The notes under the pieces are model-generated. The model was not told the origin of the DNA, did no database searches, and saw nothing but the letters and a program-made list of their open reading frames with translations. From the NCBI GenBank assembly GCA_050486505.1, contig JBJHDK010000002.1, positions 1,292 through 65,291 of the forward strand: a DNA stretch of 64,000 bases. Direction: 5' to 3'. The translations under genes and the position numbers were made by a program. This stretch comes from Fibrobacteria bacterium (GTDB lineage Bacteria; Fibrobacterota; Fibrobacteria; UBA11236). Positions 5,634 through 57,513 of this stretch are shown in pieces (the stretch's first letter is position 1; the number at the start of each line of letters is the position of its first letter).

Positions 5634-5773
5634 GGGTCACCAAAGATAGTAGGGGCGACCCGCCGGGTCGCCCTCGGCACAGGGAGCACGCAAGGATCGC
5701 CGCCGCGCGCGCCGCGTACTGTGCGCCCCGACAGGGAGTCGATGTCCCCGCAAAGGCGAGCCACGGCTCGCCC

Positions 5774-7255
5774 CTACTCCTCCCCGACACCCACAACGGT
5801 GATGTACAGGATGCCGTGGCTCAACGGCAATTCCAAAAGTTCGTTGGCAAGGTCGTCGTAGTAGCCGCCGATGCCCGACGAGCCGAGATCGCGGTGCACC
5901 GCCCACAACTGGATGCGCTCGCCGATCATGCCGCAGTCCATGCAGGCGTAGCGATACCCGCGATCCCCGTACGCGTCGACCAGCGCCTCGATGTCGGCCG
6001 TGTACACGAGGGCGAAGGCGCAGTCCGAGGCGATGTCCTGGCCGAGGCTGACGGCGTGCATGTCGGCCCTGAAATCTCCCGCGCGCTTGAGGCTCCACTC
6101 CTGCGTCGCGGGATCGACGGCGTAAACGCCGGGCTCGATCCCGTCCACGGAAAAGGCGACGACGTGCAGCCCGAGAACGTCCCGGGTGAGGGTGACCTGC
6201 TCCACGCCCGCCGCCGGACGGAGCGCGAATCGCAGCATGTCCTCCGCATCGCGCAAGGAGATGGATGCGCCGGTGAAGCGCCGCGTCGAACGACGGCGAA
6301 GAATCACCGGCTGCGGGTTGAAGTCCGCCTCCCCGGGCCTGGCCTGTCGTCCGAACCTTGCCGCGTCGTCAGGCAAGGACAGTCCGCCGACCGCTGGACG
6401 CAAGGGGTCGCTCAGCGCAATGCGCTCGCAGGCGTTTTGCTGCACCTGCATGGCGTCGTCGGAGTCGGCACGGGTGATGGCCACCTCGGGGAGCGGTCCC
6501 GGAAACTGTCCCCCGCCGGGGGGAAGATGGCCTCCGGGCCCCAAAGCGATCCCCAGCAAGGGAAACTCCTCCTTGCGTCCGAGGAAAAGAAGTTCCTCGA
6601 GGCCGTCGTCCCGGAACCCGCCGAGCACGCGGGCATCGATTCCCATGGCCGCCGCGACCTCGAGCAGGTTGGCGGCGGCGTGCCCCGTGTCAAGGAGGAT
6701 GCGGCGGTAGGCACGCTCCTTGTAACGCCAGGCGCTGCGCGCGTAAACGCCCGTGAAAAGCACCATGCAGCGGGTTTTGGCGACGACGGAATGTCCCAGA
6801 AAGTGGTGCCTCAGATCGGCAAAGAAATCTCCCTGCCAAACCGGAATGAGAGCGTTGCGCAAGGAGTGGTAGTGGTAAATGCCCGCGGGGAGATCGACGA
6901 AATCGCGTACGGCGACGTAAACCTCGGTCGGGTAGAGCCCGCCTGCGGACGGGGCTGCGCGCAGGTACCAATCGTTGCCCCCGCCCGTGACGCGCGCGGT
7001 GAGTCCCAACGTCAGGTGCAGCAGGCGGACAAGCGCGGGCAGGGCCTCGTCTCCCAGCCAAGGGGCGACGGGGCCGAACGGCGCATCGACTTCCTCGAAG
7101 AGCCCCCGCAACTGCGGAACGAGGTCGACGCTGCGACCCTCGGGCGCATCCTTGAAGGGCTCGGGTTGCTCCGTCCAACGGACCGTGCCGAGGCGATCAA
7201 TGGTTTCGGGCCGGTATTTGGTGAGCTCGTGGTAGCGCGCGGTAAAACTTGGCAC
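5774..7255 (-). CDS. SagB/ThcOx-type dehydrogenase (tandem nitroreductase-fold domains)
   Basis: 493 aa; two nitroreductase-like halves; the ~500-aa SagB-type architecture; no adjacent cyclodehydratase. Confidence 0.65.
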   Translation of the reverse strand: MPSFTARYHELTKYRPETIDRLGTVRWTEQPEPFKDAPEGRSVDLVPQLRGLFEEVDAPFGPVAPWLGDEALPALVRLLHLTLGLTARVTGGGNDWYLRAAPSAGGLYPTEVYVAVRDFVDLPAGIYHYHSLRNALIPVWQGDFFADLRHHFLGHSVVAKTRCMVLFTGVYARSAWRYKERAYRRILLDTGHAAANLLEVAAAMGIDARVLGGFRDDGLEELLFLGRKEEFPLLGIALGPGGHLPPGGGQFPGPLPEVAITRADSDDAMQVQQNACERIALSDPLRPAVGGLSLPDDAARFGRQARPGEADFNPQPVILRRRSTRRFTGASISLRDAEDMLRFALRPAAGVEQVTLTRDVLGLHVVAFSVDGIEPGVYAVDPATQEWSLKRAGDFRADMHAVSLGQDIASDCAFALVYTADIEALVDAYGDRGYRYACMDCGMIGERIQLWAVHRDLGSSGIGGYYDDLANELLELPLSHGILYITVVGVGEE

Positions 7256-7326: not shown

Positions 7327-10300
7327 ATGACGCGCCACGCGCTGTGCGCCCTGGCCGCGCTTTTCCTGCTTCACGGCGCGCATGCGGGCGGATTCACGCT
7401 CAACCGCAATGCCGCGCACATCGACTGGCGCACCGCCGAGACCGAGCATTTCAGGTTTCACTACCCCCGCGAGCTTGAGGACGTGGCGGGTCACATTGCC
7501 GGAATCGCCGAAGAGGTGGCTGCCGACAAGCTGGCCCGTTACGCCATCACGCTACCCAACAAGGTCGAATTCGTCGTGCGCGACGACATCTTCTCCAACG
7601 GTTGGGCGAACGCCCTGCAAAACACCATGACCGTGTGGGCCACGGACTGGGACTTTCCGGTGCGCGGCACCCACAACTGGATCCGCGACGTCGTCACCCA
7701 CGAGTTCGCCCATCTTGTTTCAATCCAGTCGGGGTCGAAGCTGCCCAGCTTCTTGCAGGGCGTGGTCGCAGGGTTCGAAGGATATTACAACGCGCCCCTG
7801 CAACCCCGTCTCGCGACCATTTTTCCCTTCACGCACCAGCCCGCATGGTTCGCCGAGGGCGTCGCTCAATACGAATCGGAACTTTCCGGGTATGACGCAT
7901 GGGATTCCCATCGCGACATGCTCCTGAGGATTTCGGCCCTGGAGAACCGCCTCCTGCCGATCGAGCGCATGAGCGTCTTCGCCGGCAATGCGCTTGAGTA
8001 CGAGCTGGGCCCATACACGCAAGGCTTCGCCCTCACCCGCTTCATCGCCGAACGTTACGGCGACGAAGCCGTATTGCGACTTTGGGCCGAGAATGCCCGG
8101 ATCCATCGCCAGACGATGTCGGGGTCGATGCAGCGCGTCCTCGGCAAAAGCGACCGCGAGGTGTTCCGGGAGTGGAGAAGCGAAATCACGGCACGTTACA
8201 CCGACCAGGTCCGCGACCTGGGCGAGCTGCACCAAGGGCAGAAGCTCACCTCGAAGGGCTTCTACAACTACTACCCGCGCTGGGACGCGAAAGGCGAGGG
8301 GGTTTTCTTCGTCAGCAATGCCGGGCGCGACGACTTCCGCGCGACGCTCGGGCGGGTGGCGCTCGAGGATACCGTCAAGCCCGAGGAAGAACGGTTCGAG
8401 CCCGTGCCCGGCATCAGGGGATTCTTCGATGTCGCCGCGGACGACAGCACCTTCCTGTACGCGTCGGCCCGCGAGCGGGACAGGAACGGAGTCCACACCC
8501 TCGACATCTACCAGCGCAACCTGCGGCGCGACGCGCGATTCTTCGAGAGACAGGATCCCACCGAGAAGCGCTTCACCCGCGACCTCAATGCCGTGCATCC
8601 GAACTACGCCCCTGACGGAACGCGCATCGCCTTCGTATATGCCGAGGCTTCGAATTTCTTTCTCGCGGTCGCACCGGTTCCCGAAGGGGACTCCCTGGAT
8701 GCGGAGGACGTCCGCACGCTCTTCCCTCCGCCCGAATTGCTGGAGAGGAGATTCGGCTTCAACATCTATACCCCGAAGTTTTCCCCCGACGGGGAGCGTA
8801 TCCTGTTCTCTTGGTTTGACGGGGCGGAACGCAACATCGGCATCATCAACGCCGACGGATCGGGGTTCCAGGGATTGGTCACCGGCCCCGAGGACGCGCG
8901 CGACCCGGAGTGGGACCCCGATGGAAACTCCTTCTACTATGCCTCGGACAAGACCGGCATTTTCAACCTCTACCGTTTCGACCTGACGACCGGCGACACG
9001 GAGCCCGTCACCAATGTGCTTGGCGGCGCCTTCCTGCCCTCCGTTTCGCCCGACGGGGAACGCATCGCCTACGTGAATTACGACCGCGACGGTTTTTCCA
9101 TCTACGTGTTGCACGACCCCGTTCGCGTGAACGTACCCGCGGCCTCGCATCTGGAGCAGCGACATGCGACATCGGCGCCGCCCGCGCTCGAGTTCGCCGG
9201 GCTAGGGCGCTCCTATACCCCGGTGCCGACCCGGGGGATTCTTACGCCCATCCTTTTCGGGCAGCAGACACTGGCGGCCACCCGCGAGAAGGGCGTCATC
9301 CCCGAACAGGGGGTCACCAAGTGGCTCGCCGGAGCCTCGGGGTACCTCACCGATCCCGTGCTCAAGAACGAGCTCTCCGCCGTGCTGCTCGCGGAAATCG
9401 GCAACGGGTTCGCATACTTCGGCAGGCACAGCGCATTGGTGTCTCCCGACAAGGAATCGCAGCTCTACGTCGACATCACCAACAATGCCACTCCGGTGAC
9501 CCTGCAGGCATCCTTCTTCCGCGGGAACCTCAACACCTTCGACACCGTCACCGTCCGCGACCAGCCGCAGCCCGGCGGCGGCGTGGCCGACGAGCAACTG
9601 CGCCAGGATTACGCGCTCACGTTCCGCAGCGTGGAAGCCGCCGCGGCCTACAATCTGTTCGACGCCCAGGCAGTGGGAACCTGGGATCGTCCCAGCCACG
9701 TGCGCATGGCACTCGGCTACGATTGGAACGACTTCAACTTCTACGATCTCGGCGGCGGGCAGGGGTTCGCCTTCACCTACTACAAGAGCCTGCGCCTGAC
9801 CACGAGCCTGAATCTTCACGGCTCGGGCTACAGCGACAAGGGGTTGGTGGCTCCGAGAGGTTTCGCCGCGATCCTGGCTCACACCTTCCGCGAGAGCGAT
9901 CTCTTCGGTTGCGACAGCGATTACATCAGCGACTGTTTCGACTTCGAGGGCGGCGCCCTTCGTCCCCGCTACCAAACCTACCGGTTTCACGAACTCGATG
10001 CCGGGGCGACCTACGGTCGCGCAATGCCGTGGTCGCGCAATGCCAGCATCGTCGCATCGGTGTTCGCCTCGAGCCTCGCCGACTGGTCGCTCACCCGCAG
10101 CGAACTCGCCGCCGACACGCTCGACCGCTTTTTCGAGAGAGGCCTGTTCCTGCGCGGCTACCCCTTCCTGCGCGACATCGAAAGCCTCGCCTTCGGCGGG
10201 GAGAATTCCATCACGCTCAGCCTTGATCTCAATCAACCCCTGATCGCCGACATTTATCGCAACTACTGGACGGTGTTCGTCGAGGATCTTTATCTGCACC

Positions 10301-10668
10301 TGTTCTGGGAAGCCGGGCGGGCATGGAATGGATCGATGTGGGATGCTGAGTTGTTCTCCCCCTCGGCGTGGACGCCGGAGCGTCGGGCTGACGGCTGGTA
10401 CCAAAGCGTGGGCGGAGGCCTCAAGCTGAACGCGCGCATCTACCACAACTATCCTTTTCTCGTGTACTTTCAGGCCGCGCGCGCGCTTTCGGGCCTACCC
10501 GACGGCGAAGGCGGATTCATCGCCTTGGACAACGTGCGCGTCGCCGGTTTCGAAACTCCCGCCAGCCGCATCGAGTTCGGCGTGAGCTTCGGGCTCTACA
10601 GCGGCCTGCTCACCCGCAGAAGCGAGCGCCACCCCCTGAATCCGGAGTCGCCCTTTGCCAGGCGCTAG
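7327..10668 (+). CDS. Secreted multidomain protein: N-terminal HExxH zinc-metallopeptidase-like domain, TolB/PD40-type beta-propeller repeats, C-terminal beta-rich Omp85-like region
   Basis: Signal peptide MTRHALCALAALFLLHGAHA from the internal Met of track ORF 7249..10668; HEFAHL...FAEGVAQYE motifs; repeats of the PDG(E/T)RIAF / SPDGERI(L/A) type; C-terminal alternating hydrophobic strands (GFAFTYY, LKLNARIYHNYPFLVYF, RIEFGVSFGLY). Confidence 0.8.
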   Translation: MTRHALCALAALFLLHGAHAGGFTLNRNAAHIDWRTAETEHFRFHYPRELEDVAGHIAGIAEEVAADKLARYAITLPNKVEFVVRDDIFSNGWANALQNTMTVWATDWDFPVRGTHNWIRDVVTHEFAHLVSIQSGSKLPSFLQGVVAGFEGYYNAPLQPRLATIFPFTHQPAWFAEGVAQYESELSGYDAWDSHRDMLLRISALENRLLPIERMSVFAGNALEYELGPYTQGFALTRFIAERYGDEAVLRLWAENARIHRQTMSGSMQRVLGKSDREVFREWRSEITARYTDQVRDLGELHQGQKLTSKGFYNYYPRWDAKGEGVFFVSNAGRDDFRATLGRVALEDTVKPEEERFEPVPGIRGFFDVAADDSTFLYASARERDRNGVHTLDIYQRNLRRDARFFERQDPTEKRFTRDLNAVHPNYAPDGTRIAFVYAEASNFFLAVAPVPEGDSLDAEDVRTLFPPPELLERRFGFNIYTPKFSPDGERILFSWFDGAERNIGIINADGSGFQGLVTGPEDARDPEWDPDGNSFYYASDKTGIFNLYRFDLTTGDTEPVTNVLGGAFLPSVSPDGERIAYVNYDRDGFSIYVLHDPVRVNVPAASHLEQRHATSAPPALEFAGLGRSYTPVPTRGILTPILFGQQTLAATREKGVIPEQGVTKWLAGASGYLTDPVLKNELSAVLLAEIGNGFAYFGRHSALVSPDKESQLYVDITNNATPVTLQASFFRGNLNTFDTVTVRDQPQPGGGVADEQLRQDYALTFRSVEAAAAYNLFDAQAVGTWDRPSHVRMALGYDWNDFNFYDLGGGQGFAFTYYKSLRLTTSLNLHGSGYSDKGLVAPRGFAAILAHTFRESDLFGCDSDYISDCFDFEGGALRPRYQTYRFHELDAGATYGRAMPWSRNASIVASVFASSLADWSLTRSELAADTLDRFFERGLFLRGYPFLRDIESLAFGGENSITLSLDLNQPLIADIYRNYWTVFVEDLYLHLFWEAGRAWNGSMWDAELFSPSAWTPERRADGWYQSVGGGLKLNARIYHNYPFLVYFQAARALSGLPDGEGGFIALDNVRVAGFETPASRIEFGVSFGLYSGLLTRRSERHPLNPESPFARR

Positions 10669-11596
10669 GCGCAAGCGGGTCGCCCCGGCGTCGCCGCAAC
10701 CCCCGGGTTATGCGTACGTCAACGGTCGCATCACGCGCGCGGACCGCGCCGCCATCTCCGTCTTCGACCGCGGCCTCGTCCTGGGCGACGGGCTCTTCGA
10801 AACACTGCGGGCGCATCACGGAGTTCCGGAGTTCCTCGACCTGCATTACCGGCGCCTCGTGAAATCAGCGCGCCGCTTGCGCATCCGCGTGCCCGTGACG
10901 GAGACGGAGCTGCGCGACATCATCGCGACGCTGTGTCGCAAAAGCCGGATGTACGACGCCGCGGTCCGCATCACCCTGACGCGCGGCCGCTATTTCGGCG
11001 GCCTCGCCATCGACCCCGAGGTTCCCCCATCGCTCATCGTCGTGGTGTTGCCGGTGCAACCGCTTCCCACCGACATCCTCGCACGCGGGGTGAAAGTGGC
11101 GGTGTCCTCGATCAACAAAACAGCCGCATCGGGCCTCGACCCGCGCATCAAGTCGATCAACTATCTGGCCAACATCTTCGCCAAGGCCGAAGGCGACCGC
11201 AAGGGGTGCTACGAGGCGATTCTGCTCGGCCCGCGCGGCGAGATCGCCGAATTGTCCACCTCAAGTTTCTTCTGCGTGCTCAAGGGCGTGGTCGTCACGC
11301 CCCCCATCGACACCGGCATCCTGCCCGGCATCACCCGCCAGGTGCTGCTGCGCGAGATGAAGCGGCACCGTATCCCCTTCCGCGAGGCGGAAGTGTTTCC
11401 CAAGGACGTGGAGAAGATGTCGGAAGCGTTCCTGTGTTCCTCGGTGCGCGGCCCGGTGCCGATCGCGCGCATCGACGGAAAGAAGGTGGGAACGGGCAAG
11501 CCGGGCTCGATTTTCGCGCGACTCAGGGATCTGTATCAGGATGCGTGCGAGAGGGAGTTGCGAGTCGCGAGTTACGAGTTACGAGTTACGAAGTAA
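10655..11596 (+). CDS. Class IV (fold-type IV) aminotransferase: aminodeoxychorismate lyase / branched-chain or D-amino-acid aminotransferase family
   Basis: Family-typical N-terminus YAYVNGRI...; length about 300 aa; the last ~13 codons (ELRVASYELRVTK) and the stop lie inside the heptamer repeat arm. Confidence 0.8.
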   Translation: MPGARRKRVAPASPQPPGYAYVNGRITRADRAAISVFDRGLVLGDGLFETLRAHHGVPEFLDLHYRRLVKSARRLRIRVPVTETELRDIIATLCRKSRMYDAAVRITLTRGRYFGGLAIDPEVPPSLIVVVLPVQPLPTDILARGVKVAVSSINKTAASGLDPRIKSINYLANIFAKAEGDRKGCYEAILLGPRGEIAELSTSSFFCVLKGVVVTPPIDTGILPGITRQVLLREMKRHRIPFREAEVFPKDVEKMSEAFLCSSVRGPVPIARIDGKKVGTGKPGSIFARLRDLYQDACERELRVASYELRVTK

Positions 11597-11770
11597 AAGG
11601 CGATGCATCGGGATCGCTTGCTCCATGCCTGAAGGCATCACGCCCTTCCTGCTCCTCTGCTTGAATGCTGCATCTTTTCGTCATTCATGAAATTCTGCAC
11701 GCCACCCACAAGATCCCTGTAGAGCGGTTTCATTCGTAACTCGTAATTCGTAACTCGTAATTCTCAACTC
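11555..11770. repeat. Heptamer-repeat inverted-repeat element, copy A: 5 GAGTYRC units (11555-11589), 146-bp unique core, 5 GTAAYTC units (11736-11770)
   Basis: Left arm GAGTTGC GAGTCGC GAGTTAC GAGTTAC GAGTTAC; right arm GTAACTC GTAATTC GTAACTC GTAATTC TCAACTC is its inverted complement; sits between convergent genes and supplies both their stops. Confidence 0.8.
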
Positions 11771-16657: not shown

Positions 16658-18628
16658 TTACAGGTTGAGGGAAAGACCGAGCGACCAGGTCCGACCGCTT
16701 CGGGGACTGTAGACGAAGTCCCGATACTGTCGGTCGGTGAGATTTCGGACATCGAGGGAGAGTCTGATCGGGCCGCGATGCAAGGCACCGTGGGCACCCC
16801 ACTCCACCTCGGCATCCCGGCGCGATACGGGAAGGTTGGCTTCGCCCGGATACCATGGGCTCCGGAAACCGAGCGTCGGTCCCAGGCGCGCGCCCTCGAA
16901 CGGCTTGGCGAAGAATCCCGCGTGCGCCTCGACGGGACTGTGGTGCGCGGGGCGGTTTCCCGCGTGCAGTCCCTCGGTGATCTCCGCGCGCGACAGGGCG
17001 GCCGATGCCGCGGCTTCGAAACGGCGCGAATCCCATCCCCCTGAAAGTTCAAGACCGCGCACTTGGTAATCCGCACGGTTCTCGTACAGCAGAAAGGGAG
17101 AAGCGCCGCGCGCGCCAAGGCGGATCGGGTCGGTGTGAAGATTCCAGTATGCCTCCCAACGCGCGCTCCATGCCCCATGACCGAGGCCGTGCAGGATCGA
17201 AACCCCCGACGTTTCCTCCGGGCGCAGCGCTGTGTTCGCCTGCACGCCGTGGTTGTCGCCCAGCAATTCGCCGGAAGAAGGCGCGCGCTGCTCATGCTTG
17301 GCCACGGCCGCGAAGATCCCCACGGTCGTTTGCCATTGCAGTGCGGCACGCAATGTGGATGGCATGCGCGCCACCGAGACCCGATCTCCCTCGGGTGCGT
17401 CGGGATAGGCGCGCACCGCATCGGCATCGAAACGCACCGCCGCCGCCCGCGCCTCCAGCGTTGCGTTCAGGAACGGCGTGATGCCGTGATCCATGCGCCA
17501 CCCGAGCAGTGCCTCCAGCCTGCGCCCCGCGGGCGCGGACATGTTTTGCGAAAACGGCGTTTCGCGCGGATCGACGGTTTCGGCACGCAAATGAGCGTCC
17601 GTCGCGAAGGCCAGTGTCCCGGTCAGCGGAAGCCGCGCGCGCGCGTCCACCCCGGCGGATGTCGAGACCCGTTCCAACGCGTGCGAGAGATGGCCCAGCG
17701 TGCGACCGGGATCGCGATACGCGTCGGTGGCGCGATGCGCCTGCACGCCCGCCTCCCAGGACATGATCTCACCGTGATGCCGCGCGCGCCAGGCCCCCAT
17801 CCATGCCTCGCGCACCGTGTAGGCGCTTGATCCGGTGCCGAGCAACCCGGGATATTCCTTGCGCGATTCCAGCCAAAGCAGGGAGACGTCCTGGCCAAAA
17901 AACCCGTTTCCGGCGCGGGCCGAGGCACGGACCCCCCGGCTCCAGTACCCGTTGTTCCGCATGCGCGTGACACCGTCGTCGTCCGGATTGTGGATCGTGC
18001 CGTTGTCGTTGAACCATGGGTAATCGTTGCGGGCATGCTGGCCCTGCACACCGATCGACCATTGCGTCACCCCGTTTCCGCGAACGGTCACGGCGGACTC
18101 CGCGGTTCCATGCGAGCCACCCCGGGCGTGCGCTTCGGTTCGGTCGGCACCGTGGGAGGACAAATCGATGCGGGCCAGCATGCCGGAACCGACGACGTCG
18201 GGATCGACCCCGGTGCGCGCCTCCAGCGACGTGAACCAAAGCAACGGCCACTTGGAAAGATCGGGCGCGGGGTCGCCATCCTGGTTGAGGCGCATTCCGT
18301 CGACGTAGATCTCGATGGATGAGGCGCGCGCGCCGCGAAAACTCAATTCGGAGTAGCCGCCCAGCCCGCCCTGCCGGCGCACGCGAAAACCCGGCAACGA
18401 AGCGATCGCATCCTCAAGGGTCGCGAAACGGCGCAGGGCCTCGCCCTCGATGCGATGCGTGTCGGGTGAGGAGGACTCACTGCTGCGGCCGTACGCCTCC
18501 GTTCCCGGCAACTCGAGCGCTTCGGGCGTGACGCCATCGTCCGCGGCGACGGAAACCGCAAGGACAAACGGCACGGCGCGGGCGAAGGTCCGCGCAAAGA
18601 TCCGCTTTCCCGTAGGGACGTGCGGCAT
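16658..18628 (-). CDS. btuB: TonB-dependent outer-membrane receptor, BtuB-like (cobalamin)
   Basis: Plug and barrel motifs; C-terminal ...SLGLSLNL; start at internal Met MPHV (RBS AAGGAAGG upstream) rather than the track start 18709, which falls inside a palindrome; cobalamin riboswitch upstream. Confidence 0.8.
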   Translation of the reverse strand: MPHVPTGKRIFARTFARAVPFVLAVSVAADDGVTPEALELPGTEAYGRSSESSSPDTHRIEGEALRRFATLEDAIASLPGFRVRRQGGLGGYSELSFRGARASSIEIYVDGMRLNQDGDPAPDLSKWPLLWFTSLEARTGVDPDVVGSGMLARIDLSSHGADRTEAHARGGSHGTAESAVTVRGNGVTQWSIGVQGQHARNDYPWFNDNGTIHNPDDDGVTRMRNNGYWSRGVRASARAGNGFFGQDVSLLWLESRKEYPGLLGTGSSAYTVREAWMGAWRARHHGEIMSWEAGVQAHRATDAYRDPGRTLGHLSHALERVSTSAGVDARARLPLTGTLAFATDAHLRAETVDPRETPFSQNMSAPAGRRLEALLGWRMDHGITPFLNATLEARAAAVRFDADAVRAYPDAPEGDRVSVARMPSTLRAALQWQTTVGIFAAVAKHEQRAPSSGELLGDNHGVQANTALRPEETSGVSILHGLGHGAWSARWEAYWNLHTDPIRLGARGASPFLLYENRADYQVRGLELSGGWDSRRFEAAASAALSRAEITEGLHAGNRPAHHSPVEAHAGFFAKPFEGARLGPTLGFRSPWYPGEANLPVSRRDAEVEWGAHGALHRGPIRLSLDVRNLTDRQYRDFVYSPRSGRTWSLGLSLNL

Positions 18629-18691
18629 GATTCCTTCCTTCCGCGGGGCTGGGCCGCGGAACGATTGTCTGCGTCTGTCGAGGGGGCGGGC

Positions 18692-18719
18692 GTAGGGGCA
18701 AATAATCATTTGCCCCTAC
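18692..18719. repeat. 28-bp palindrome copy 1 (GTAGGGGCAAATAATCATTTGCCCCTAC), extended by flanking GGGCGGGC/GCCCGCCC
   Basis: Read directly; lies in the btuB 5' leader between the riboswitch aptamer and the start codon; near-identical copy at 62963-62990. Confidence 0.8.
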
Positions 18720-18804
18720 ATCGCCCGCCCTCGTCCCGAAGAGCAGCGCGTGAACCCGCAGGTGAGTCTTCTGGCTTGCGGCGGGAACCCCTGTTGGGGG
18801 GATC

Positions 18805-18985
18805 CGGAAGTCTTCCGCCTTCCCGCCCGGCGCCCCGTTCCCCGAAGGGGGGGGATGGCCTGGACAGTGGCTGGCGCGCGCAGTTGCGGGCGCCGGGAAA
18901 ACATCAACCGCTTACAGCGACGAGCTCGCTCCCGATTCGCACGGGATTCCTCGTTATGCCCTTCCGAACCGTTCGGAGGGCTCCC
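18805..18985 (-). ncRNA. Cobalamin (adenosylcobalamin) riboswitch
   Basis: The minus strand reads ...AGGAATCCCGTGCGAATCGGGAGC...GCTGTAAGCGG...GCAACTG...GCCACTG...GGGAAGGC. This matches E. coli btuB leader blocks (AGGGAAUCCAGUGCGAAUCUGGAGCUGAC...GCAGCGGUAAGG) plus the B12 box GCCACTG and GGGAAGGC. Sits upstream of a TonB receptor. Confidence 0.8.
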
Positions 18986-19107
18986 TGTGAGCGAATGGAA
19001 TAGTAGTCAATGCGGATAGCGGGGCGTCAAACGGGCGACCCCACGGGTCGCCCGTACATGAATCGATGCCGAAGGAATGTAGGGCCGAGCCGCTGGCTCG
19101 CCCGAAA

Positions 19108-27394: not shown

Positions 27395-28401
27395 GGGCCT
27401 CGAAGGCAAAGCCAGCCCCCTCGAAAATGCGTTCCTGGGTTTCAAACGCAGCGCGTATCGGTATCGGCATCTTCGTGGTGTGGGCGCTGGTACGCACCGG
27501 TGCGCTCAAGCCCGAGTTGCTCGGAGACGCAATCACGGGGCATCCGTTCCTGTATGCGACGGCCTTTTTCGTGTATCTCGTGCCGCTGCAAATCCTCGCC
27601 TGCGGACGCTGGTACTGGCTCCTGCGTTCGGCGAAAGTTTCCATCACCCTGAAGGAAACCGCTCGCCTGCATTTCACGGGTCTTTTTTTCAGCGGCTTTC
27701 TTCCCGGCGGCATGGGGGGAGATCTGGTGAAGGGATGGTACCTCGTGCGGGGACGCGACCGGATCGAAGGCGCGGCGGCGCTGGGGACGCTGGTGGTCGA
27801 TCGCATCATCGGCCTCTTCGGACTCATCGGTCTGGCGGCACTGACCACGCTGTTCAACGCCGGGGTATGGAAAGCTTCGCCCGTCCTGGCAACGCAGTCG
27901 ACCGTTATTCTCGCGGCTGCCGGCGGCATGCTGGCGATGACCTTCGCGTATCTCTCGCCTTGGAAGCCACGCTGGCTTCCGGAACCTGCACGCGAGGGTA
28001 ATGCCCGGGGATTCCTGATGGAACTCGCAGCGGCGCTCACGGCTTTCCGGAGCGCACCGCGCGTCTTCGTCGGAGGCATCCTCATTTCCATGATGGTACA
28101 CTTCTGCCTCGTCACGGTGTACGCCCTTTGCGGCGGCGCCCTCGAGGTCCCGCTCTCCTTCCGCTTGCATGCCTATGTCGCGCCCGTGCTGACCTTCGTG
28201 AACGGAATTCCCATTTCGCCTGGGGGCCTCGGCGTGGGCGAAGCGGCGGGCATGGTGCTCTACGATCTGGCCGGCGCGCCGCACTCCCAAGCGGAGATCC
28301 CCGCACTCGTGCGAACGATCGTGTTGATGACCGCGCTTCTCAGCGCGCCGGCATATCTCTTCATCAAGCAACAGAGGACGGGCCGTTCCGAAAACGCCTG
28401 A
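27391..28401 (+). CDS. UPF0104 / lysylphosphatidylglycerol-synthase-TM-region-like (flippase-like) membrane protein
   Basis: About 336 aa, 7-8 TM helices, family-typical GGxGxxEA-like block (PGGLGVGEAAGM); ATGA overlap with rnhB. Confidence 0.65.
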   Translation: MRASKAKPAPSKMRSWVSNAARIGIGIFVVWALVRTGALKPELLGDAITGHPFLYATAFFVYLVPLQILACGRWYWLLRSAKVSITLKETARLHFTGLFFSGFLPGGMGGDLVKGWYLVRGRDRIEGAAALGTLVVDRIIGLFGLIGLAALTTLFNAGVWKASPVLATQSTVILAAAGGMLAMTFAYLSPWKPRWLPEPAREGNARGFLMELAAALTAFRSAPRVFVGGILISMMVHFCLVTVYALCGGALEVPLSFRLHAYVAPVLTFVNGIPISPGGLGVGEAAGMVLYDLAGAPHSQAEIPALVRTIVLMTALLSAPAYLFIKQQRTGRSENA

Positions 28402-28491
28402 CGCCCCCGAGGAGGCTCCGACCTCCGCGGCCGCGGCCCTCATGAACTAACTTCCCCGGCAAGCACGCGACAGCGAACCCCCGGAGGCAGC

Positions 28492-28677
28492 ATGGATTTC
28501 ACCAAACCCCGTACATGGACCGTGGCAGAGATCGGCTGCCTGAAGTGGGCATCCATTCTCATCGGCGCTGTGATCGGCGCCTACATCCCCGATCTGGTCA
28601 AGCAATACGTTTGGGTCTTCGTGATCTCGGCGGCCATCCTTTCCATCAAGCCGATCTCGGGGTACTTCCGAAAGTGA
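28492..28677 (+). CDS. Small hydrophobic hypothetical protein (61 aa)
   Basis: Two predicted TM segments; weak support, no recognizable RBS check possible. Confidence 0.3.
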   Translation: MDFTKPRTWTVAEIGCLKWASILIGAVIGAYIPDLVKQYVWVFVISAAILSIKPISGYFRK

Positions 28678-28723
28678 ACCCGAAAACCCTGACGCTCCGA
28701 ACGCATTCCCCCACCCCCACCTC

Positions 28724-28772
28724 CCAACTCCCAACTCCCAACTCCCAACTCATAACTCGTAACTCGTAACTC
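28724..28772. repeat. Heptamer tandem repeat, half-element B: 4x CCAACTC, 1x ATAACTC, 2x GTAACTC
   Basis: Seven contiguous 7-nt units ending 3 nt before the ATG at 28776; same unit family as the inverted arms at 11555-11770 and 48691-48843; no inverted partner found nearby. Confidence 0.75.
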
Positions 28773-28775
28773 AAC

Positions 28776-29729
28776 ATGGGCACCTTCCAGCTCGCGGCCA
28801 CGGTTATCGCAGCCGTCATGCTGTTCCTGCACAGCCTGCAGTCCTTCTCGCGCGAAGTGCGCGTGCTGGGGCGCGACCGCCTACGCCTGTGGCTTGCGGC
28901 TGCGACGAAGAACCGCATTTACGGATTCACCCTCGGCGCGCTTTTCACGGCCCTGGTACAATCCTCGAGCGCAGTGTCGGCGCTGGCCATCGCCCTTGTC
29001 AACGGGGGCATGCTTTCCTTCACAGGTTCGCTTTCGGTGCTGCTGGGAGCGAAGGTCGGCACGACCATCACCGCGTGGCTGGTGAGCTTCAAGCTGACGG
29101 GGCTGGGTGCCTACGCCATCATCCTCGGCACCGTGATCTCGATGCTTCCCTACGGCATGCGGGTCATCGGCAAAAGCGTCTTTTACTTCGGGCTCATTTT
29201 CCTTTCGCTTGATTTGATTTCCACGGCACTGAGGCCCCTCCAGGACGATCCATGGCTGATCGACATCCTCTCCCTGGCCGCGACGCCATGGATCGGCGTG
29301 ATCGTGGGCGCGCTCGCCACGGCTCTGTTGCAGTCCTCGAGCGTGACGGCGGGTCTCGCCGTGCTGCTGGTGCTGCAGGGAGTTCTCGACCCGACGGGCG
29401 GCGTGGCCATCGTGATCGGGGCGAATGTCGGAACGACCGCGACAGCGCTCATCGCAAGCATCCCGATGGACCGCCCGGCCAAGCGGGCGGCGCTCGCGTA
29501 TCTCTTGTTCAACGGCACAGGCGCGCTCCTCTTCCTTCCCTTCATCCAGCCCTTCGCGACATTCACGCTCGGGCTGGTCGACACGCCCGCGGTGGGCGTG
29601 GCCTTGGCGCAGTTGTTGTTCAACCTGAGCACGGCCATTCTGTTCCTGCCCTTGCTCGGTCCGATCGGCCGATGGCTCGACCCCAGCGCCGGCCCGGATC
29701 TGCTGGCCGACATGCCCAGGCCCAAATAG
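28776..29729 (+). CDS. Na+/phosphate (Na/Pi) cotransporter family protein
   Basis: Duplicated QSSSA(V/T) Na/Pi-cotransporter signature; multi-TM. True start may be the internal Met at about 28818, since the repeat occupies the RBS position. Confidence 0.75.
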   Translation: MGTFQLAATVIAAVMLFLHSLQSFSREVRVLGRDRLRLWLAAATKNRIYGFTLGALFTALVQSSSAVSALAIALVNGGMLSFTGSLSVLLGAKVGTTITAWLVSFKLTGLGAYAIILGTVISMLPYGMRVIGKSVFYFGLIFLSLDLISTALRPLQDDPWLIDILSLAATPWIGVIVGALATALLQSSSVTAGLAVLLVLQGVLDPTGGVAIVIGANVGTTATALIASIPMDRPAKRAALAYLLFNGTGALLFLPFIQPFATFTLGLVDTPAVGVALAQLLFNLSTAILFLPLLGPIGRWLDPSAGPDLLADMPRPK

Positions 29730-44296: not shown

Positions 44297-45448
44297 GTGA
44301 CCCGCACCGCCTTAAACCCGAACCTGACGCGCAGATGTCTGCCAGGACTGCTTGCCCTTGCAATCTCTCCCCTGTTGCGCGCATTGCTCCTGCCACTGCG
44401 CCGCCGCAGCCGTGAGGATGCTCCCGTTACCGTCTTCGCCAGCTACATGGTCGGCGACCTGTTCATGGCCTTGCCGGCGCTGAAGCGCATCGCGGCCGCG
44501 ATCCCGGTGCGCGTACTCTGCCGCGCAGACTGCGTGAGCTTCCTTGAACGCGAAGGCATCCCTGCGGCGCCCTTCACCAACAGCTTCCGGATCCGCCCCA
44601 CCGTTTCAACCTTCCTCGAAACCTGGCGTTCCGCATGGAGCCTCCGCGGCCACCTTGACGGCATCGCGCTGGACCTCGACGCGGATCCCCGCACGGCATT
44701 CTGGTTGCGCATTGCCGGAGTCGCGCGCGTCGTTTCCTACCGCCGCGCCTACGGAATCCTGTTCGATGATGCGTTCGCCCTGCCTTCCGGCGCCGTGCAC
44801 CAAGCCGACCGCGACATGGCGGTGGTGGAGGAGTTCTTGCGGAGGCACGTCCTGAACGGGAGACGGGCGACGGCAGACGGGAGAGCTCCCAGTATGGGCG
44901 ACCTTCCCGGCCTTCGCCGGGGTGACGGGGTCGCCCTTACGGAGAGAGTGTATCACCCCCCTCCCCCGTCTCCCGCCTGGCTCCTCTCAGTCTGGACGCG
45001 CAAGCCCGCAAAAAACTGGCCGCTCCCGAGCTGGGAGGCATTCATGCAACGCCTTCAGGAAAAGGGGGTTCCCTTCGCGGTCATCGACGCCCCCGATGGA
45101 GACGCGGAGTTCCGGGCCTTCCGGGAGCGGTGGAACGGGCGGGTCGACTTTGCACGCGGAAGCCTCGTCGAAATCGCGGACAGAGTCCGCTCCTCCGCGG
45201 GCGTGATCGCCACCGACAACTTCCTCGGCCACATGGCCGGGTATTACGGGAAACCCGTCCTGTGGATCAACGTCTGCTCGCCCGCGGAACAGGTGGAACC
45301 GCGTGGCCCCCGAACAGTGCGCGTGCAGGCGAAGGATCCGCGACAAGCGAAGGAGCTGGATTCCGAAACGGTGTGGCGAACCTTCGAGGATCTTCGCGCA
45401 GGCGCACCTGCGGCGGCTTCAACGTCTTCCGCTACTCGGGCAAGCTGA
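44297..45448 (+). CDS. Glycosyltransferase family 9 (heptosyltransferase-like)
   Basis: GT9-type architecture (…GDLFMALPALKRI…, C-terminal …TDNFLGHMAGYYGKPVL). Confidence 0.7.
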   Translation: MTRTALNPNLTRRCLPGLLALAISPLLRALLLPLRRRSREDAPVTVFASYMVGDLFMALPALKRIAAAIPVRVLCRADCVSFLEREGIPAAPFTNSFRIRPTVSTFLETWRSAWSLRGHLDGIALDLDADPRTAFWLRIAGVARVVSYRRAYGILFDDAFALPSGAVHQADRDMAVVEEFLRRHVLNGRRATADGRAPSMGDLPGLRRGDGVALTERVYHPPPPSPAWLLSVWTRKPAKNWPLPSWEAFMQRLQEKGVPFAVIDAPDGDAEFRAFRERWNGRVDFARGSLVEIADRVRSSAGVIATDNFLGHMAGYYGKPVLWINVCSPAEQVEPRGPRTVRVQAKDPRQAKELDSETVWRTFEDLRAGAPAAASTSSATRAS

Positions 45449-48228: not shown

Positions 48229-48696
48229 ATGGAAATGGATATCGGATTGGCCAAAAAAGACCGCCAAAAGATTGCAACGGGGCTGTCGCGCGTTCTGGCG
48301 GACAGCTATACCCTCTATCTCAAAACGCACAATTTCCATTGGAATGTGACCGGGCCGATGTTCCAGACTCTCCATCTGATGTTCGAGACGCATTATACCG
48401 AACTTGCCGTGGCGGTGGACGACATCGCGGAGCGCATTCGCGCCTTGGGGCACCCCGCACCCGGAACCTACAAGGCGTTCGAAAAACTCTCTTCGATTCC
48501 GATGGAGGACGGCGTACCGAAGGCGACTGACATGATCCGCTCGCTGGTCAAGGGCCACGAGGCTGTGGCAAAAACCGCCCGCACCGCCTTCGTTGACGCG
48601 GATGCCGCTGGCGACGAGCCCACGGCCGACCTCCTGACCCAACGCATGCAGGTGCATGAGAAGACCGCGTGGATGCTCCGCAGCCTGCTGGAATAA
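48229..48696 (+). CDS. dps: DNA starvation/stationary phase protection protein Dps
   Basis: Ferritin-like ferroxidase residues (HWNVTG...HLMFE); the stop TAA lies inside the first repeat unit. Confidence 0.95.
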   Translation: MEMDIGLAKKDRQKIATGLSRVLADSYTLYLKTHNFHWNVTGPMFQTLHLMFETHYTELAVAVDDIAERIRALGHPAPGTYKAFEKLSSIPMEDGVPKATDMIRSLVKGHEAVAKTARTAFVDADAAGDEPTADLLTQRMQVHEKTAWMLRSLLE

Positions 48697-48843
48697 TTAC
48701 GAATTAAGAATTACGAATTTAACGCAGATGTCGCTGCCGCATGAAGAGTCCGTGCGCCATGCAAACGTGAATCGCCGAAGTCCGAGTTCAAGACGCCGCC
48801 CTTCATTCGTAATTCGTAATTCGTAATTCTTAATTCTTATCGC
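48691..48843. repeat. Heptamer-repeat inverted-repeat element, copy C: arms TAATTAC GAATTAA GAATTAC GAATTTA (48694-48721) and GTAATTC x3 TTAATTC TTATCGC (48809-48843), 87-bp core
   Basis: Arms are inverted complements; the dps stop (48694-96) and the hldE stop (48837-39) each fall inside an arm. Confidence 0.8.
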
Positions 48844-55794: not shown

Positions 55795-55894
55795 CTTCCC
55801 GAATTCACGCGCCGGATTGCAAGCCCTGCCTTATCTTAACCTTTGCCGGCCGCATGCAGCGGCGCGCGAAAGCACCGGACATCAAGGAGGCTCC

Positions 55895-56341
55895 ATGAGT
55901 GGACTCGTCGATCTCGGAAACCGCATCCTGAACATTGCACCATCCTGGTCCTGGCTGCCGCCCCTGCTGGCGCGTATCGCGATGGGCTGGGTATTTATCA
56001 CTTCGGGTCTCGGAAAGCTGCAAAACCTCGACAGGGTCACCGGCTTTTTCAACAGCCTCGGAATTCCGGCTCCCGGAGCGATGGCTCCTTTCGTCGGCAC
56101 GGTCGAACTTGTTGCCGGCGTGCTTCTGATCGCGGGACTCGCGACACGCCTCTCGGCCATTCCTCTCGTCATCATCATGGTCGTCGCGCTCCTGACCGCA
56201 ATCGGCCCGAGTGTCGAAGGACTGCGCGGGCTGTTCGGCACACAGGAATTTCTGTACGTCATCATGCTGATCTGGCTCATGGTCGCGGGCCCGGGCCCCG
56301 TCTCCATCGATTCGAAGGTATCCGGCAAATACCGAAGCTGA
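55895..56341 (+). CDS. DoxX family membrane protein
   Basis: Four TM helices, about 150 aa, DoxX-like. Confidence 0.75.
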   Translation: MSGLVDLGNRILNIAPSWSWLPPLLARIAMGWVFITSGLGKLQNLDRVTGFFNSLGIPAPGAMAPFVGTVELVAGVLLIAGLATRLSAIPLVIIMVVALLTAIGPSVEGLRGLFGTQEFLYVIMLIWLMVAGPGPVSIDSKVSGKYRS

Positions 56342-56463
56342 GAGGATCACCATCCACGCTTCCAGGAGCCGCCCCACCAGGGCGGCTTTTTTCTGCGTGT
56401 CCCGGCAAAATCCCCGAAAATCGCGCGGGTTGGCGAAGCCGACCCCCACCTCCAAAAAACCAC

Positions 56464-56489
56464 TTGACATTGAATTAGAATCATTCTAA
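56464..56489 (+). promoter_or_regulatory. Putative promoter (-35 TTGACA) overlapping a 7-1-7 inverted repeat TTAGAATcATTCTAA (PerR/Fur-box-like)
   Basis: Perfect 7-1-7 palindrome with the same geometry as Per boxes; ends 3 nt before the ATG of the Fur-family gene, suggesting leaderless autoregulated transcription. Confidence 0.55.
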
Positions 56490-56492
56490 ACT

Positions 56493-56909
56493 ATGGGCAT
56501 GGCACCGCTTCTCACCAAGCACCGCGAGACGATCCTCACCGTGGTTCAGTCCAGCAAGGACCACCCCACGGCGCGGCAGGTTTTCGAGCGTTCCCTGAAA
56601 AAGGATCCGCGCTTGAGCATGGCGACGGTGTACAACTCCCTGAACTTCCTGACGAGCGGGGGCTACATCCGCCGCATGGAAGCGGGCGAGGAAGGAACGC
56701 GCTACGACGGAATCCTCGCACGGCATGACCACCTGATCTGCCGCCAGTGCGGCCACATCGAAGACGTGGACGTTCTTCCCTCGGACAAGGCGCGCGTCGC
56801 GTCCTTCCCGCATTTCCAGGTCGAAGAGGTCACGCTACGTGTGACGGGACTGTGCGCCTCTTGCCGCAAGCAGTCCCGTCAAGGCAATGGAACCGCAATC
56901 ACGCCCTGA
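56493..56909 (+). CDS. Fur family transcriptional regulator (PerR-like)
   Basis: Winged-helix N-domain plus CRQCGH....C.SC metal-site motifs; sits next to dps and ahpC. Confidence 0.85.
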
Positions 56910-57435: not shown

Positions 57436-57513
57436 ATGTGCAGGGGCGACGCATGCGTCGCCCTCAACAGAGAGCCAACCACACAGAGTCACCCAAACGA
57501 AAGGATCCATCAC

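Follow-up and report, generated by a model that had tools for sequence, protein, structure and literature searches.

We analysed a 64,000-nucleotide stretch of the genome of a Fibrobacteria bacterium (contig JBJHDK010000002.1 of GenBank assembly GCA_050486505.1; hereafter the window), in which a tandem array of heptanucleotide repeats stands directly in front of a gene for a Na/Pi cotransporter. The array is non-coding and lies within the 98-nt spacer between two open reading frames (ORFs), 28492-28677 and 28776-29729. The former encodes a small conserved membrane protein and is likely the first cistron of an operon with the latter, the transporter gene. Reading of the sequence places CCAACTC units at 28724-28730, 28731-28737, 28738-28744 and 28745-28751, ATAACTC at 28752-28758 and GTAACTC at 28759-28765 and 28766-28772, followed by AAC (28773-28775) and the ATG at 28776. 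This confirms what an earlier note, made from the sequence alone, had described, i.e. seven heptamers that end 3 nt 5' of the start codon. The coordinates of this and all other features are given in Table 1.

Tandem Repeats Finder detected period 7 over 28716-28751 (5.1 copies, 96% matches) and again over 28747-28773 (3.9 copies). With seven clean and two degenerate units, the array exceeds the copy number (at least three to four, beyond chance) by which heptanucleotide simple sequence repeats (SSRs) are recognised. An autocorrelation scan of the window revealed four strong period-7 arrays (11555-11596, 11732-11763, 28713-28774 and 48800-48841) and a fifth, weaker one (48695-48719). At a stringent threshold three arrays were found at period 7, compared with none or one at each other period from 4 to 15, and 100 first-order Markov simulations of the window yielded no period-7 array; this period is therefore over-represented in the 64 kb. 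In an independent Logan assembly (L001) the array is identical over the part covered.

The L001 contig begins inside the array, and the short-read contig L012, from a sister lineage, likewise begins inside a heptamer array. Such arrays thus appear to break assemblies, and their frequency in metagenomes is probably under-counted.

The start codon and its leader

The earlier note considered that the annotated start might be wrong, with a normal ribosome-binding site and start lying further downstream, about 14 codons into the gene. Homologues from 87% down to approximately 55% identity begin alike, with M-x-x-FQL (M-x-x-FQLAAT) and then a hydrophobic stretch, and residues 4-14 (FQLAATVIAAV) are conserved in most of them. 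Moreover, distant homologues have Leu at the position of Met15, and within codons 2-10 of close orthologues most differences are third-position ones (GGC/GGA, GCG/GCC, ACG/ACT/ACC, GTT/GTC). Judging from this conservation, the true start codon is ATG 28776, and the array indeed stands against it. A start at Met15 (ATG 28818) was ruled out on the same N-terminal conservation, and on reading the sequence we found no Shine-Dalgarno (SD) sequence before ATG 28818, so that both of these suggestions were abandoned. A longer N-terminus is excluded by an in-frame TAA at 28767-28769, two codons 5' of ATG 28776. Each of the last three units contains TAA, which leaves no frame open over the 24 nt before the ATG.

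A candidate ORF of 84 aa (28515-28769) has its end 6 nt from the ATG, where translational coupling would be conceivable. We consider it unlikely, because this ORF shares sequence with the conserved 61-aa ORF, in a different frame, and continues across the array. Neither a sigma-70-like promoter (the scan covers sigma-70 only) nor a terminator-like site was detected within 28401-28776. At the gathering threshold, Rfam models matched only a tRNA and a cobalamin riboswitch in the whole window, both elsewhere.

The leader of the transporter gene has no SD sequence: none of GGAG, GAGG or AGGA occurs between positions -20 and -3 relative to ATG 28776. The neighbouring starts at 28492 (upstream), 29784 and 30513 (both downstream) have GGAGG or AGGAGG at the proper distance, and our survey found that many other clean ATG starts in the window carry an SD as well. 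The G fraction of the last 30 nt before the transporter ATG is 0.07, the lowest of the 58 ORFs in the window. The 76 nt preceding the ATG consist of 38 C, 22 A, 13 T and 3 G (50% C, 4% G).

The leader is also predicted to be unstructured. When 28678-28835 is folded, neither the array nor the AUG pairs at any position in the minimum-energy or the centroid structure (z = +0.19 relative to shuffled sequences), and the predicted mean unpaired probability between positions -20 and +13 is 0.73, which ranks first among the 58 ORFs (median 0.42). The folding energy of the 130-nt start region is -18.5 kcal/mol, compared with a median of -40.7.

Heptamer arrays at the orthologous junction and elsewhere

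A scan of a species-representative genome collection with the transporter protein gave a single match, an uncultured Fibrobacteria metagenome-assembled genome with 81% identity and conserved synteny. The named homologues of the CysS encoded in the window all belong to Fibrobacteria, Fibrobacterota or Fibrobacter. The orthologous loci were therefore gathered by exact-protein look-ups. The same junction takes very different forms in these relatives (Table 1). In the closest one (L004) the array is again solo, but built of another unit, while in a sister lineage, represented by two samples with near-identical strains (L003 and L012), a full inverted pair of arrays occupies the same spacer. In L002 a heptamer hairpin (GGATCGT / ACGATCC) lies upstream of the small ORF instead. 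The spacer before the transporter gene is a hot spot in which arrays with unrelated units have arisen repeatedly.

Apart from the tightly coupled L002 and the distant L009, an SD is absent from all orthologues, all of which have a free-standing leader. These leaders have a G fraction of 0.07-0.17 in the last 40 nt and a predicted start-region unpaired probability of 0.55-0.78. In the close orthologues (L003/L012, L004 and L005) the values are 0.07-0.10 and 0.60-0.78, respectively, although their arrays differ or are absent. Even in L003, where a hairpin is predicted for the paired arrays, the AUG and the ~20 nt before it stay largely free. Since the leaders are SD-less and G-poor with or without an array, it is the leader property and not the array that is conserved; the heptamer array is one of several ways to a G-poor, unstructured, SD-less leader.

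The two samples of the sister lineage allow array turnover to be followed. An alignment of 2,272 columns shows seven differences between them, five of which lie inside arrays: one additional AGTGATG unit, one missing CCTAAGT unit, and three substitutions exactly 7 nt apart in one array. The remaining differences are one coding substitution and one in-frame coding deletion of 42 nt, and the unique spacers between the arms are 100% identical. Arrays at an orthologous site thus differ in steps of whole units (+7 and -7 nt); they change far faster than their surroundings, and variants spread between neighbouring units. These observations support the slippage or gene conversion invoked by the earlier note and explain the gradient of units in the array studied here, in which homogeneous blocks of four and two units are joined by one intermediate. 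The 42-nt deletion (14 codons; L003 8905-8946 versus L012) lies within the Na/Pi cotransporter gene itself.

The load of arrays differs sharply between close lineages. L003 carries at least eight arrays in 9.3 kb, compared with five in the 64 kb of the window. In L003 a cluster of five co-directional genes has heptamer arrays in every intergenic spacer (5781-5934, 6954-7133, 7650-7830 and 8046-8248). At least three of the four spacers hold clear inverted pairs; in each of them the arm on the upstream stop is G-rich, and the arm that precedes the following start by 10-30 nt is C-rich. In the fourth, one arm has grown to nine CCACTGT units, and its 5' partner is a short, decayed TTGGTAG array. 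Two other Fibrobacteria relatives, L133 and L134 (CysS 82% and 75% identical), have no period-7 array in 43 kb. The trait is therefore patchy, and the idea of a lineage-wide trait was rejected on this ground.

No inverted partner arm of the array at 28.7 kb was found near it, in agreement with the earlier note: of the 95 inverted-repeat pairs in 27900-29700, the 25 longest do not involve the array, and a relaxed search of the whole window (GAGTTNN three times, at most three mismatches) matched the plus strand only at 11555-11594 and, weakly, at 48701. The note had also called the array a solo or degraded arm. Solo is correct; as no vestige of a partner was found, degraded is without direct support. 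The other arrays of the window are paired. The arms at 11555-11596 and 11732-11770 are predicted to form a ~45-bp stem that spans the intergenic spacer of two convergent genes (dG -107.5 kcal/mol, z = -8.8), and the arms at 48695-48719 and 48800-48841 also give a structured predicted fold (z = -3.6). These arms adjoin or overlap stop codons of the genes on either side. Since GTAACTC is common to the 28.7-kb array and the 11.5-kb pair, the former may fairly be described as a solo arm of the same repeat family.

Neither within the window nor in L003 do the spacers between paired arms share homology beyond chance words of 7-9 nt. This is unlike repetitive extragenic palindromes (REPs), their hairpin-forming doublets (REPINs) or miniature inverted-repeat transposable elements, and means that the arrays do not represent copies of a mobile element having a conserved core. 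A mobile-element origin was rejected, the spacers being unlike each other and unlike any sequence fetched.

A scan of metagenome contigs for four successive AAYTCNN units matched at least 120 contigs with a GC content of 29-68%; the figures that follow refer to the matches listed, and the gene calls in both orientation tests are heuristic. In many of these contigs there are several period-7 arrays, along with inverted pairs made of various units. Of the 109 arrays in the high-GC loci (334 kb), 96 fall outside the genes called. Where an array follows a stop codon within 25 nt in these loci, G mostly exceeds C on the sense strand (29 versus 5, p = 4e-5), and a cruder ORF-based test on all contigs weakly confirmed this rule (41 versus 23, p = 0.03). 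Only the stop-proximal orientation rule is solid. A long ORF begins within 30 nt downstream on the sense strand of 38 of the 149 AAYTC arrays. Arrays of CCAACTC/CTAACTC lie 6-19 nt 5' of long ORFs in the unrelated contigs L104, L100, L082 and L027, the longest example being that of L104, where ~30 units end 6 nt before an ORF of 1,673 codons. In L080 a TTAACTC array lies 7 nt upstream of a long ORF.

The L082 locus (68% GC) deserves a separate description. At 2481-2565 an array of 11 CCTAACT/CCCAACT units ends 18 nt before an ATG with an SD-less leader. The ORF that follows is Y-family-polymerase-like (MYGDCTLLHVDADGFFAGVEQ), and an SOS-box-like palindrome, TAGAACGTTTGTTCTATA, lies upstream.

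Table 1. Position and description of the features discussed (window coordinates unless a locus is named; percentages are identities of the transporter protein).
Feature	Position	Strand	Description
Core heptamer array	28724-28772	+	CCAACTC x4, ATAACTC x1, GTAACTC x2; C-rich strand is the sense strand of the downstream gene
Degenerate 5' extension of the array	28710-28723	+	units CCCACCC, CCACCTC; back to ~28710
Last three units	28752-28772	+	TAA in each; in-frame stop 28767-28769
G-quadruplex-type motif	28708-28746	-	(GGGAGTT)4, then GGGAGGTGGGGGTGGGGG; found by regular expression; longest of only 7 in 64 kb
Na/Pi cotransporter gene	28776-29729	+	317 aa; PF02690, E = 4.5e-47
Conserved membrane-protein ORF	28492-28677	+	61 aa; SD GGAGG; synteny in L002, L003, L004, L011, L012
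Junction in L004			87%, closest relative; solo array of another unit, TTCTGAT x4, reaching to 11 nt before ATG
Junction in L003 / L012			82% / 79%; inverted pair, GGGCTTAGGACTT at upstream stop, CCTAAGT x4 or x3 ~20 nt before ATG
Junction in L002			81%; 61-aa ORF stops 4 nt before Na/Pi ATG; no array there
Junction in L005, L011, L008			78%, 70%, 64%; spacer without array
GAGTTAC-type arm, opposite orientation	11555-11596	+	overlaps last 13 codons and stop of class-IV aminotransferase gene
GTAACTC/GTAATTC arm	11732-11770	+	partner of 11555-11596
AATTACG arm	48695-48719	+	adjoins stop codon of Dps/ferritin-like gene
ATTCGTA/ATTCTTA arm	48800-48841	+	partner of 48695-48719; adjoins stop of HldE-like gene (minus strand)
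GGGCGAC-loop-GTCGCCC hairpins	5653-5681, 19033-19061, 44896-44944, 57444-57471; L004 416-443; L009 10979, 11308

Several other elements were noticed in the course of this work. The GAGTTAC array at 11555-11596 encodes the last ~13 residues (ELRVASYELRVTK) of the class-IV aminotransferase ORF 10655-11596. A relative, L133, ends ~9 residues earlier (ACDKGIGNI, then stop) and has no more than a proto-array of two units, GGGAATTGGGAATA, so that the C-terminus of the protein has been rewritten by the repeat. A second, REP-like family of intergenic repeats consists of the GGGCGAC-loop-GTCGCCC hairpins of Table 1, often followed by CTAC or TTAC. Directly 5' of the one at 44896-44944 lies a further period-7 array, four ACGGGAG units at 44856-44884, and the ORF called over it (44297-45448) probably has an over-extended start. 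The cobalamin riboswitch (RF00174, 67.6 bits; 18744-19003, minus strand) stands directly 5' of a TonB-dependent receptor gene (16658-18709, minus strand). Finally, a perfect palindrome, TTAGAATGATTCTAA, at ~56470-56495, between the divergent ORFs 55805-56470 (minus strand) and 56493-56909 (plus strand) and beside TTGACA, may be a candidate operator, Fur-box-like in appearance.

Origin and possible role of the array

That this is a heptamer repeat built by slippage, located between the two cistrons of a small operon, is close to certain. As the leader is G-poor and cannot fold, and this property is common to the orthologues, we favour an unstructured landing pad for SD-independent initiation. 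Slippage of whole units, or unequal exchange between them, most likely made the array and still alters its size; its C-rich strand lies in the mRNA sense, immediately before the true start. The spacer would be transcribed with the operon, and the role of the repeat would be passive but real, supplying a G-poor leader of ~70 nt unable to base-pair. On such a leader 30S subunits could load without an SD, by S1-type initiation on unstructured RNA, and the number of units may tune expression. We give a probability of about 0.6 to this composite explanation, i.e. a slippage-built solo heptamer SSR that serves, or is tolerated, as an unstructured SD-independent leader and whose unit number may affect expression. 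The stronger wording of the earlier note, in which the array itself acts as the translation-initiation region, is consistent with the missing SD, the least structured start of 58 and the similar leaders of the orthologues, but it is unproven.

Several observations weigh against this explanation. Just one of the 58 ORFs of the window has a leader with an array abutting the start, and therefore such leaders are not a genome-wide initiation signal here. The array-free orthologues L005, L011 and L008 are SD-less and G-poor too, which implies that the array is not needed for the leader property and may be a passenger. The C-rich-before-start half of the orientation rule is marginal only: within 25 nt before starts in the high-GC loci listed, arrays with more C than G outnumber the opposite by 17 to 7 (p = 0.06), and over the at least 120 contigs the preference for the sense orientation before starts is not significant (38 versus 29, p = 0.33). 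Moreover, that the spacer is transcribed, where the mRNA begins and how initiation proceeds are all inferred.

The same array-free orthologues, which keep such leaders, also speak for a neutral by-product, i.e. a slippage repeat that occurs where it is tolerated and adds nothing to a leader already SD-less and G-poor. The unit sequences in this spacer are unrelated between lineages, and the array load is patchy among relatives, down to none in L133 and L134 (43 kb). Mrazek et al. (cited in PMC4679880) proposed an interaction with DNA polymerase that favours slippage as the source of heptanucleotide repeats. However, debris of this kind does not readily account for the strong placement of arrays at gene boundaries, as seen in the G excess after stops, for a transporter start region predicted to be the least structured of 58, or for three lineages that independently carry heptamer arrays beside this start codon. 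We regard neutrality as possible but, on balance, doubtful; if the array is neutral, the finding is an ordinary one.

The array might also be the surviving 3' arm of a former intercistronic hairpin, involved in RNA processing or stability, whose 5' arm was lost. This explanation is compatible with the landing pad, and exactly such a layout exists in the same spacer of L003/L012 (G-rich at the stop, C-rich before the start), with a predicted stem that spares the ~20 nt next to the AUG. Pairs fill at least three of four consecutive spacers in L003, the other arrays of the window are paired, and the orientation of the array at 28.7 kb is that expected of a 3' arm. On the other hand, no trace of a G-rich heptamer arm follows the stop at 28677 or occurs within ~900 nt, the closest relative, L004 (87%), has a solo array as well, and the spacers share no homology from which an ancestry could be reconstructed. 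We therefore hold a lost partner to be a tentative proposal, somewhat less probable than neutrality.

An element acting on the level of DNA seems unlikely. Here the template strand, with (GGGAGTT)4 and GGGGG tracts, would form a G-quadruplex, and the sense strand an i-motif, and transcription would be modulated. The longest G-quadruplex motif of the window is indeed at 28708-28746 on the minus strand and its unit conforms to (GGGANTN)n; the strand rich in G is the antisense one, lies within 50 bp 5' of an ORF and has four perfect units, as in Xanthomonas and Nostoc (PMC4692102). Rehm et al., however, found no regulatory role for such repeats (PMC4692102). Most other arrays of the lineage (GTAACTC, CCTAAGT, CATCACT, TTCTGAT, ACGATCC) cannot form a G-quadruplex and yet follow the same placement rules.

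A Rho-loading (Rho utilization, rut) site, at which the leader would recruit Rho and, when free of ribosomes, attenuate transcription into the transporter gene, is similarly improbable. A rut site is a stretch of RNA of ~70-80 nt that is rich in C, poor in G and unstructured. The 76 nt leading up to the ATG match such sites in composition, and in composition only, being half C and predicted to be fully unpaired, and leaders with more C than G are conserved in the orthologues. The same composition is equally explained by SD-independent initiation.

We also give little credence to the broader proposal that the heptamer arrays of this lineage are a maintained post-transcriptional system and not passive slippage debris. 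In such a system genome-specific families of units may be dispersed to gene boundaries, G-rich after stops and C-rich before starts. Paired arms may form RNA hairpins between cistrons or at 3' ends, C-rich arms that stand alone may be landing pads for SD-independent initiation, and G-rich arms of other transcripts may mask the pads in trans, as 11569-11588 might mask 28753-28772. If this were true, the patchy occurrence of arrays among close relatives would imply a lineage-specific factor that creates or spreads them.

Still less likely is a binding platform, in which repeated YAACUC would be bound by an RNA-binding regulator, or paired in trans with GAGUUAC arms, so that the start is occluded. 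The two segments just named are perfectly complementary over 20 nt, the GTAACTC/GTAATTC family is shared between the 11.5-, 28.7- and 48.7-kb sites of the window, AGTGATG and GGGCTTA recur at several L003 sites, and MacGregor proposed S1, Csp or CsrA-like binders for the TAACTGA repeats (PMC4679880). However, units at the same site are wholly different between sister lineages, the complementary arm at 11.5 kb already has a partner in cis, and no candidate protein was identified. The weakest explanation is a mis-annotated start, with translation from Met15 and the array merely in an untranslated spacer: the Pfam Na_Pi_cotrans profile alignment begins at residue 16 and two database homologues (P0010 and P0019) are called from Met15, but the conservation of residues 4-14, the Leu of distant homologues, the third-position substitutions and the missing SD before 28818 leave it hardly any credit.

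Comparison with known repeat systems

The REP, REPIN and bacterial interspersed mosaic element (BIME) sequences of Proteobacteria are short dispersed intergenic repeats, which occur as inverted pairs and singlets, often at convergent gene ends and between cistrons, and are thought to form RNA hairpins. They are imperfect palindromes of conserved sequence with a dedicated transposase. The arrays described here are tandem heptamers, and the spacers between their arms share no homology.

In the hmw1A leader of H. influenzae, the phase-variable (ATCTTTC)n pairs with a G-rich arm, the duplex is cut by RNase III, and expression falls as the repeats rise in number (PMC12721329). A pyrimidine-rich heptamer repeat in a gene leader is common to both cases, the transcription of the leader being presumed in ours, whereas the hmw1A system involves a long hairpin with a G-rich right arm, at least 11 repeats and an adhesin (PMC12721329). 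Our array has no partner, is predicted to be unpaired and to form no hairpin, comprises seven to nine units and precedes a housekeeping-type transporter gene. To our knowledge, hmw is the only heptamer-leader system with an experimental mechanism, and we know of no function of a heptamer repeat outside the hmw adhesin.

In position the array resembles the TAACTGA repeats, which lie directly 5' of start codons in marine Beggiatoaceae and in certain Cyanobacteria and Bacteroidetes, overlapping the position where a ribosome-binding site would be expected, and for which MacGregor (2015) proposed translational roles via S1, Csp or CsrA-like proteins (PMC4679880). As there, forward tandem heptamers stand a few nt from the start in the place of the ribosome-binding site, with no canonical one at our gene and canonical SDs rare in those spacers; also common to both are indels in 7-nt steps between strains (here seen at the orthologous site of the sister lineage), a patchy distribution among relatives and a similar core (TAACT there, TAACTCG / CAACTCC here) (PMC4679880). 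The unit itself is different, since the best register, TAACTCG, agrees at five of seven positions. Furthermore, a single unit dominates in BOGUAY, at 169 sites, whereas we found several families of units, and within the 64 kb only one of 58 ORFs is preceded by the repeat. Most other arrays here are inverted pairs at stops, and Fibrobacterota are not among the reported hosts (PMC4679880).

In Xanthomonas ~185 GGGAATC-type heptamer repeats occur in each of two genomes, 70-75 per genome as convergent inverted pairs, and in Xanthomonas and Nostoc the G-rich strand is mostly antisense within 50 bp before ORFs or sense within 50 bp after stops (PMC4692102). Rehm et al. reported that four units are favoured and that length and sequence vary between related species at the same site, and did not identify a function (PMC4692102). 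Our array resembles these (GGGANTN)n and GGGGA(C/T)T repeats in unit, placement, four perfect units, intergenic position, variability and the inverted pairs elsewhere (PMC4692102). On the minus strand its four GGGAGTT units followed by GGGAGGTGGGGGTGGGGG provide a GGGANTN unit with at least four G-tracts, and the motif ends 29 nt before ATG 28776 with the G-rich strand antisense, as in the placement described by Rehm et al. In our case, however, the CCAACTC block alone is G-quadruplex-capable, while the GTAACTC part and most sister arrays are not. The orientation rule holds here for units of the latter kind as well, and G-quadruplex formation is not needed to explain it.

The array also agrees with the cyanobacterial short tandemly repeated repetitive (STRR) sequences (Mazel 1990) and the long 7-nt SSRs (Mrazek 2007) in its period, its intergenic position, the presence of several families per genome and the over-representation of period 7, with slippage the accepted source of length change; heptamers are the most abundant long simple repeats according to Mrazek et al., as cited in PMC4679880. 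Both classes, as cited in PMC4679880 and PMC4692102, are descriptive, with neither a function nor a rule of placement defined, and the present lineage is new for them. The array is a solo heptanucleotide SSR of the broad class to which STRR sequences, long 7-nt SSRs, (GGGANTN)n and TAACTGA belong.

Heptamer repeats that hug starts or stops, solo or as inverted pairs, are thus already known from Xanthomonas, Nostoc, Beggiatoaceae and the Haemophilus hmw genes. What our analysis adds is the extension to Fibrobacterota, an orientation rule independent of G-quadruplex potential and a natural series at one junction. Depending on the lineage, one conserved two-gene junction has no spacer, a plain G-poor leader, a solo array with three unit types or an inverted pair. 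It constitutes a natural experiment, which makes it testable whether such arrays matter for translation initiation or are tolerated junk.

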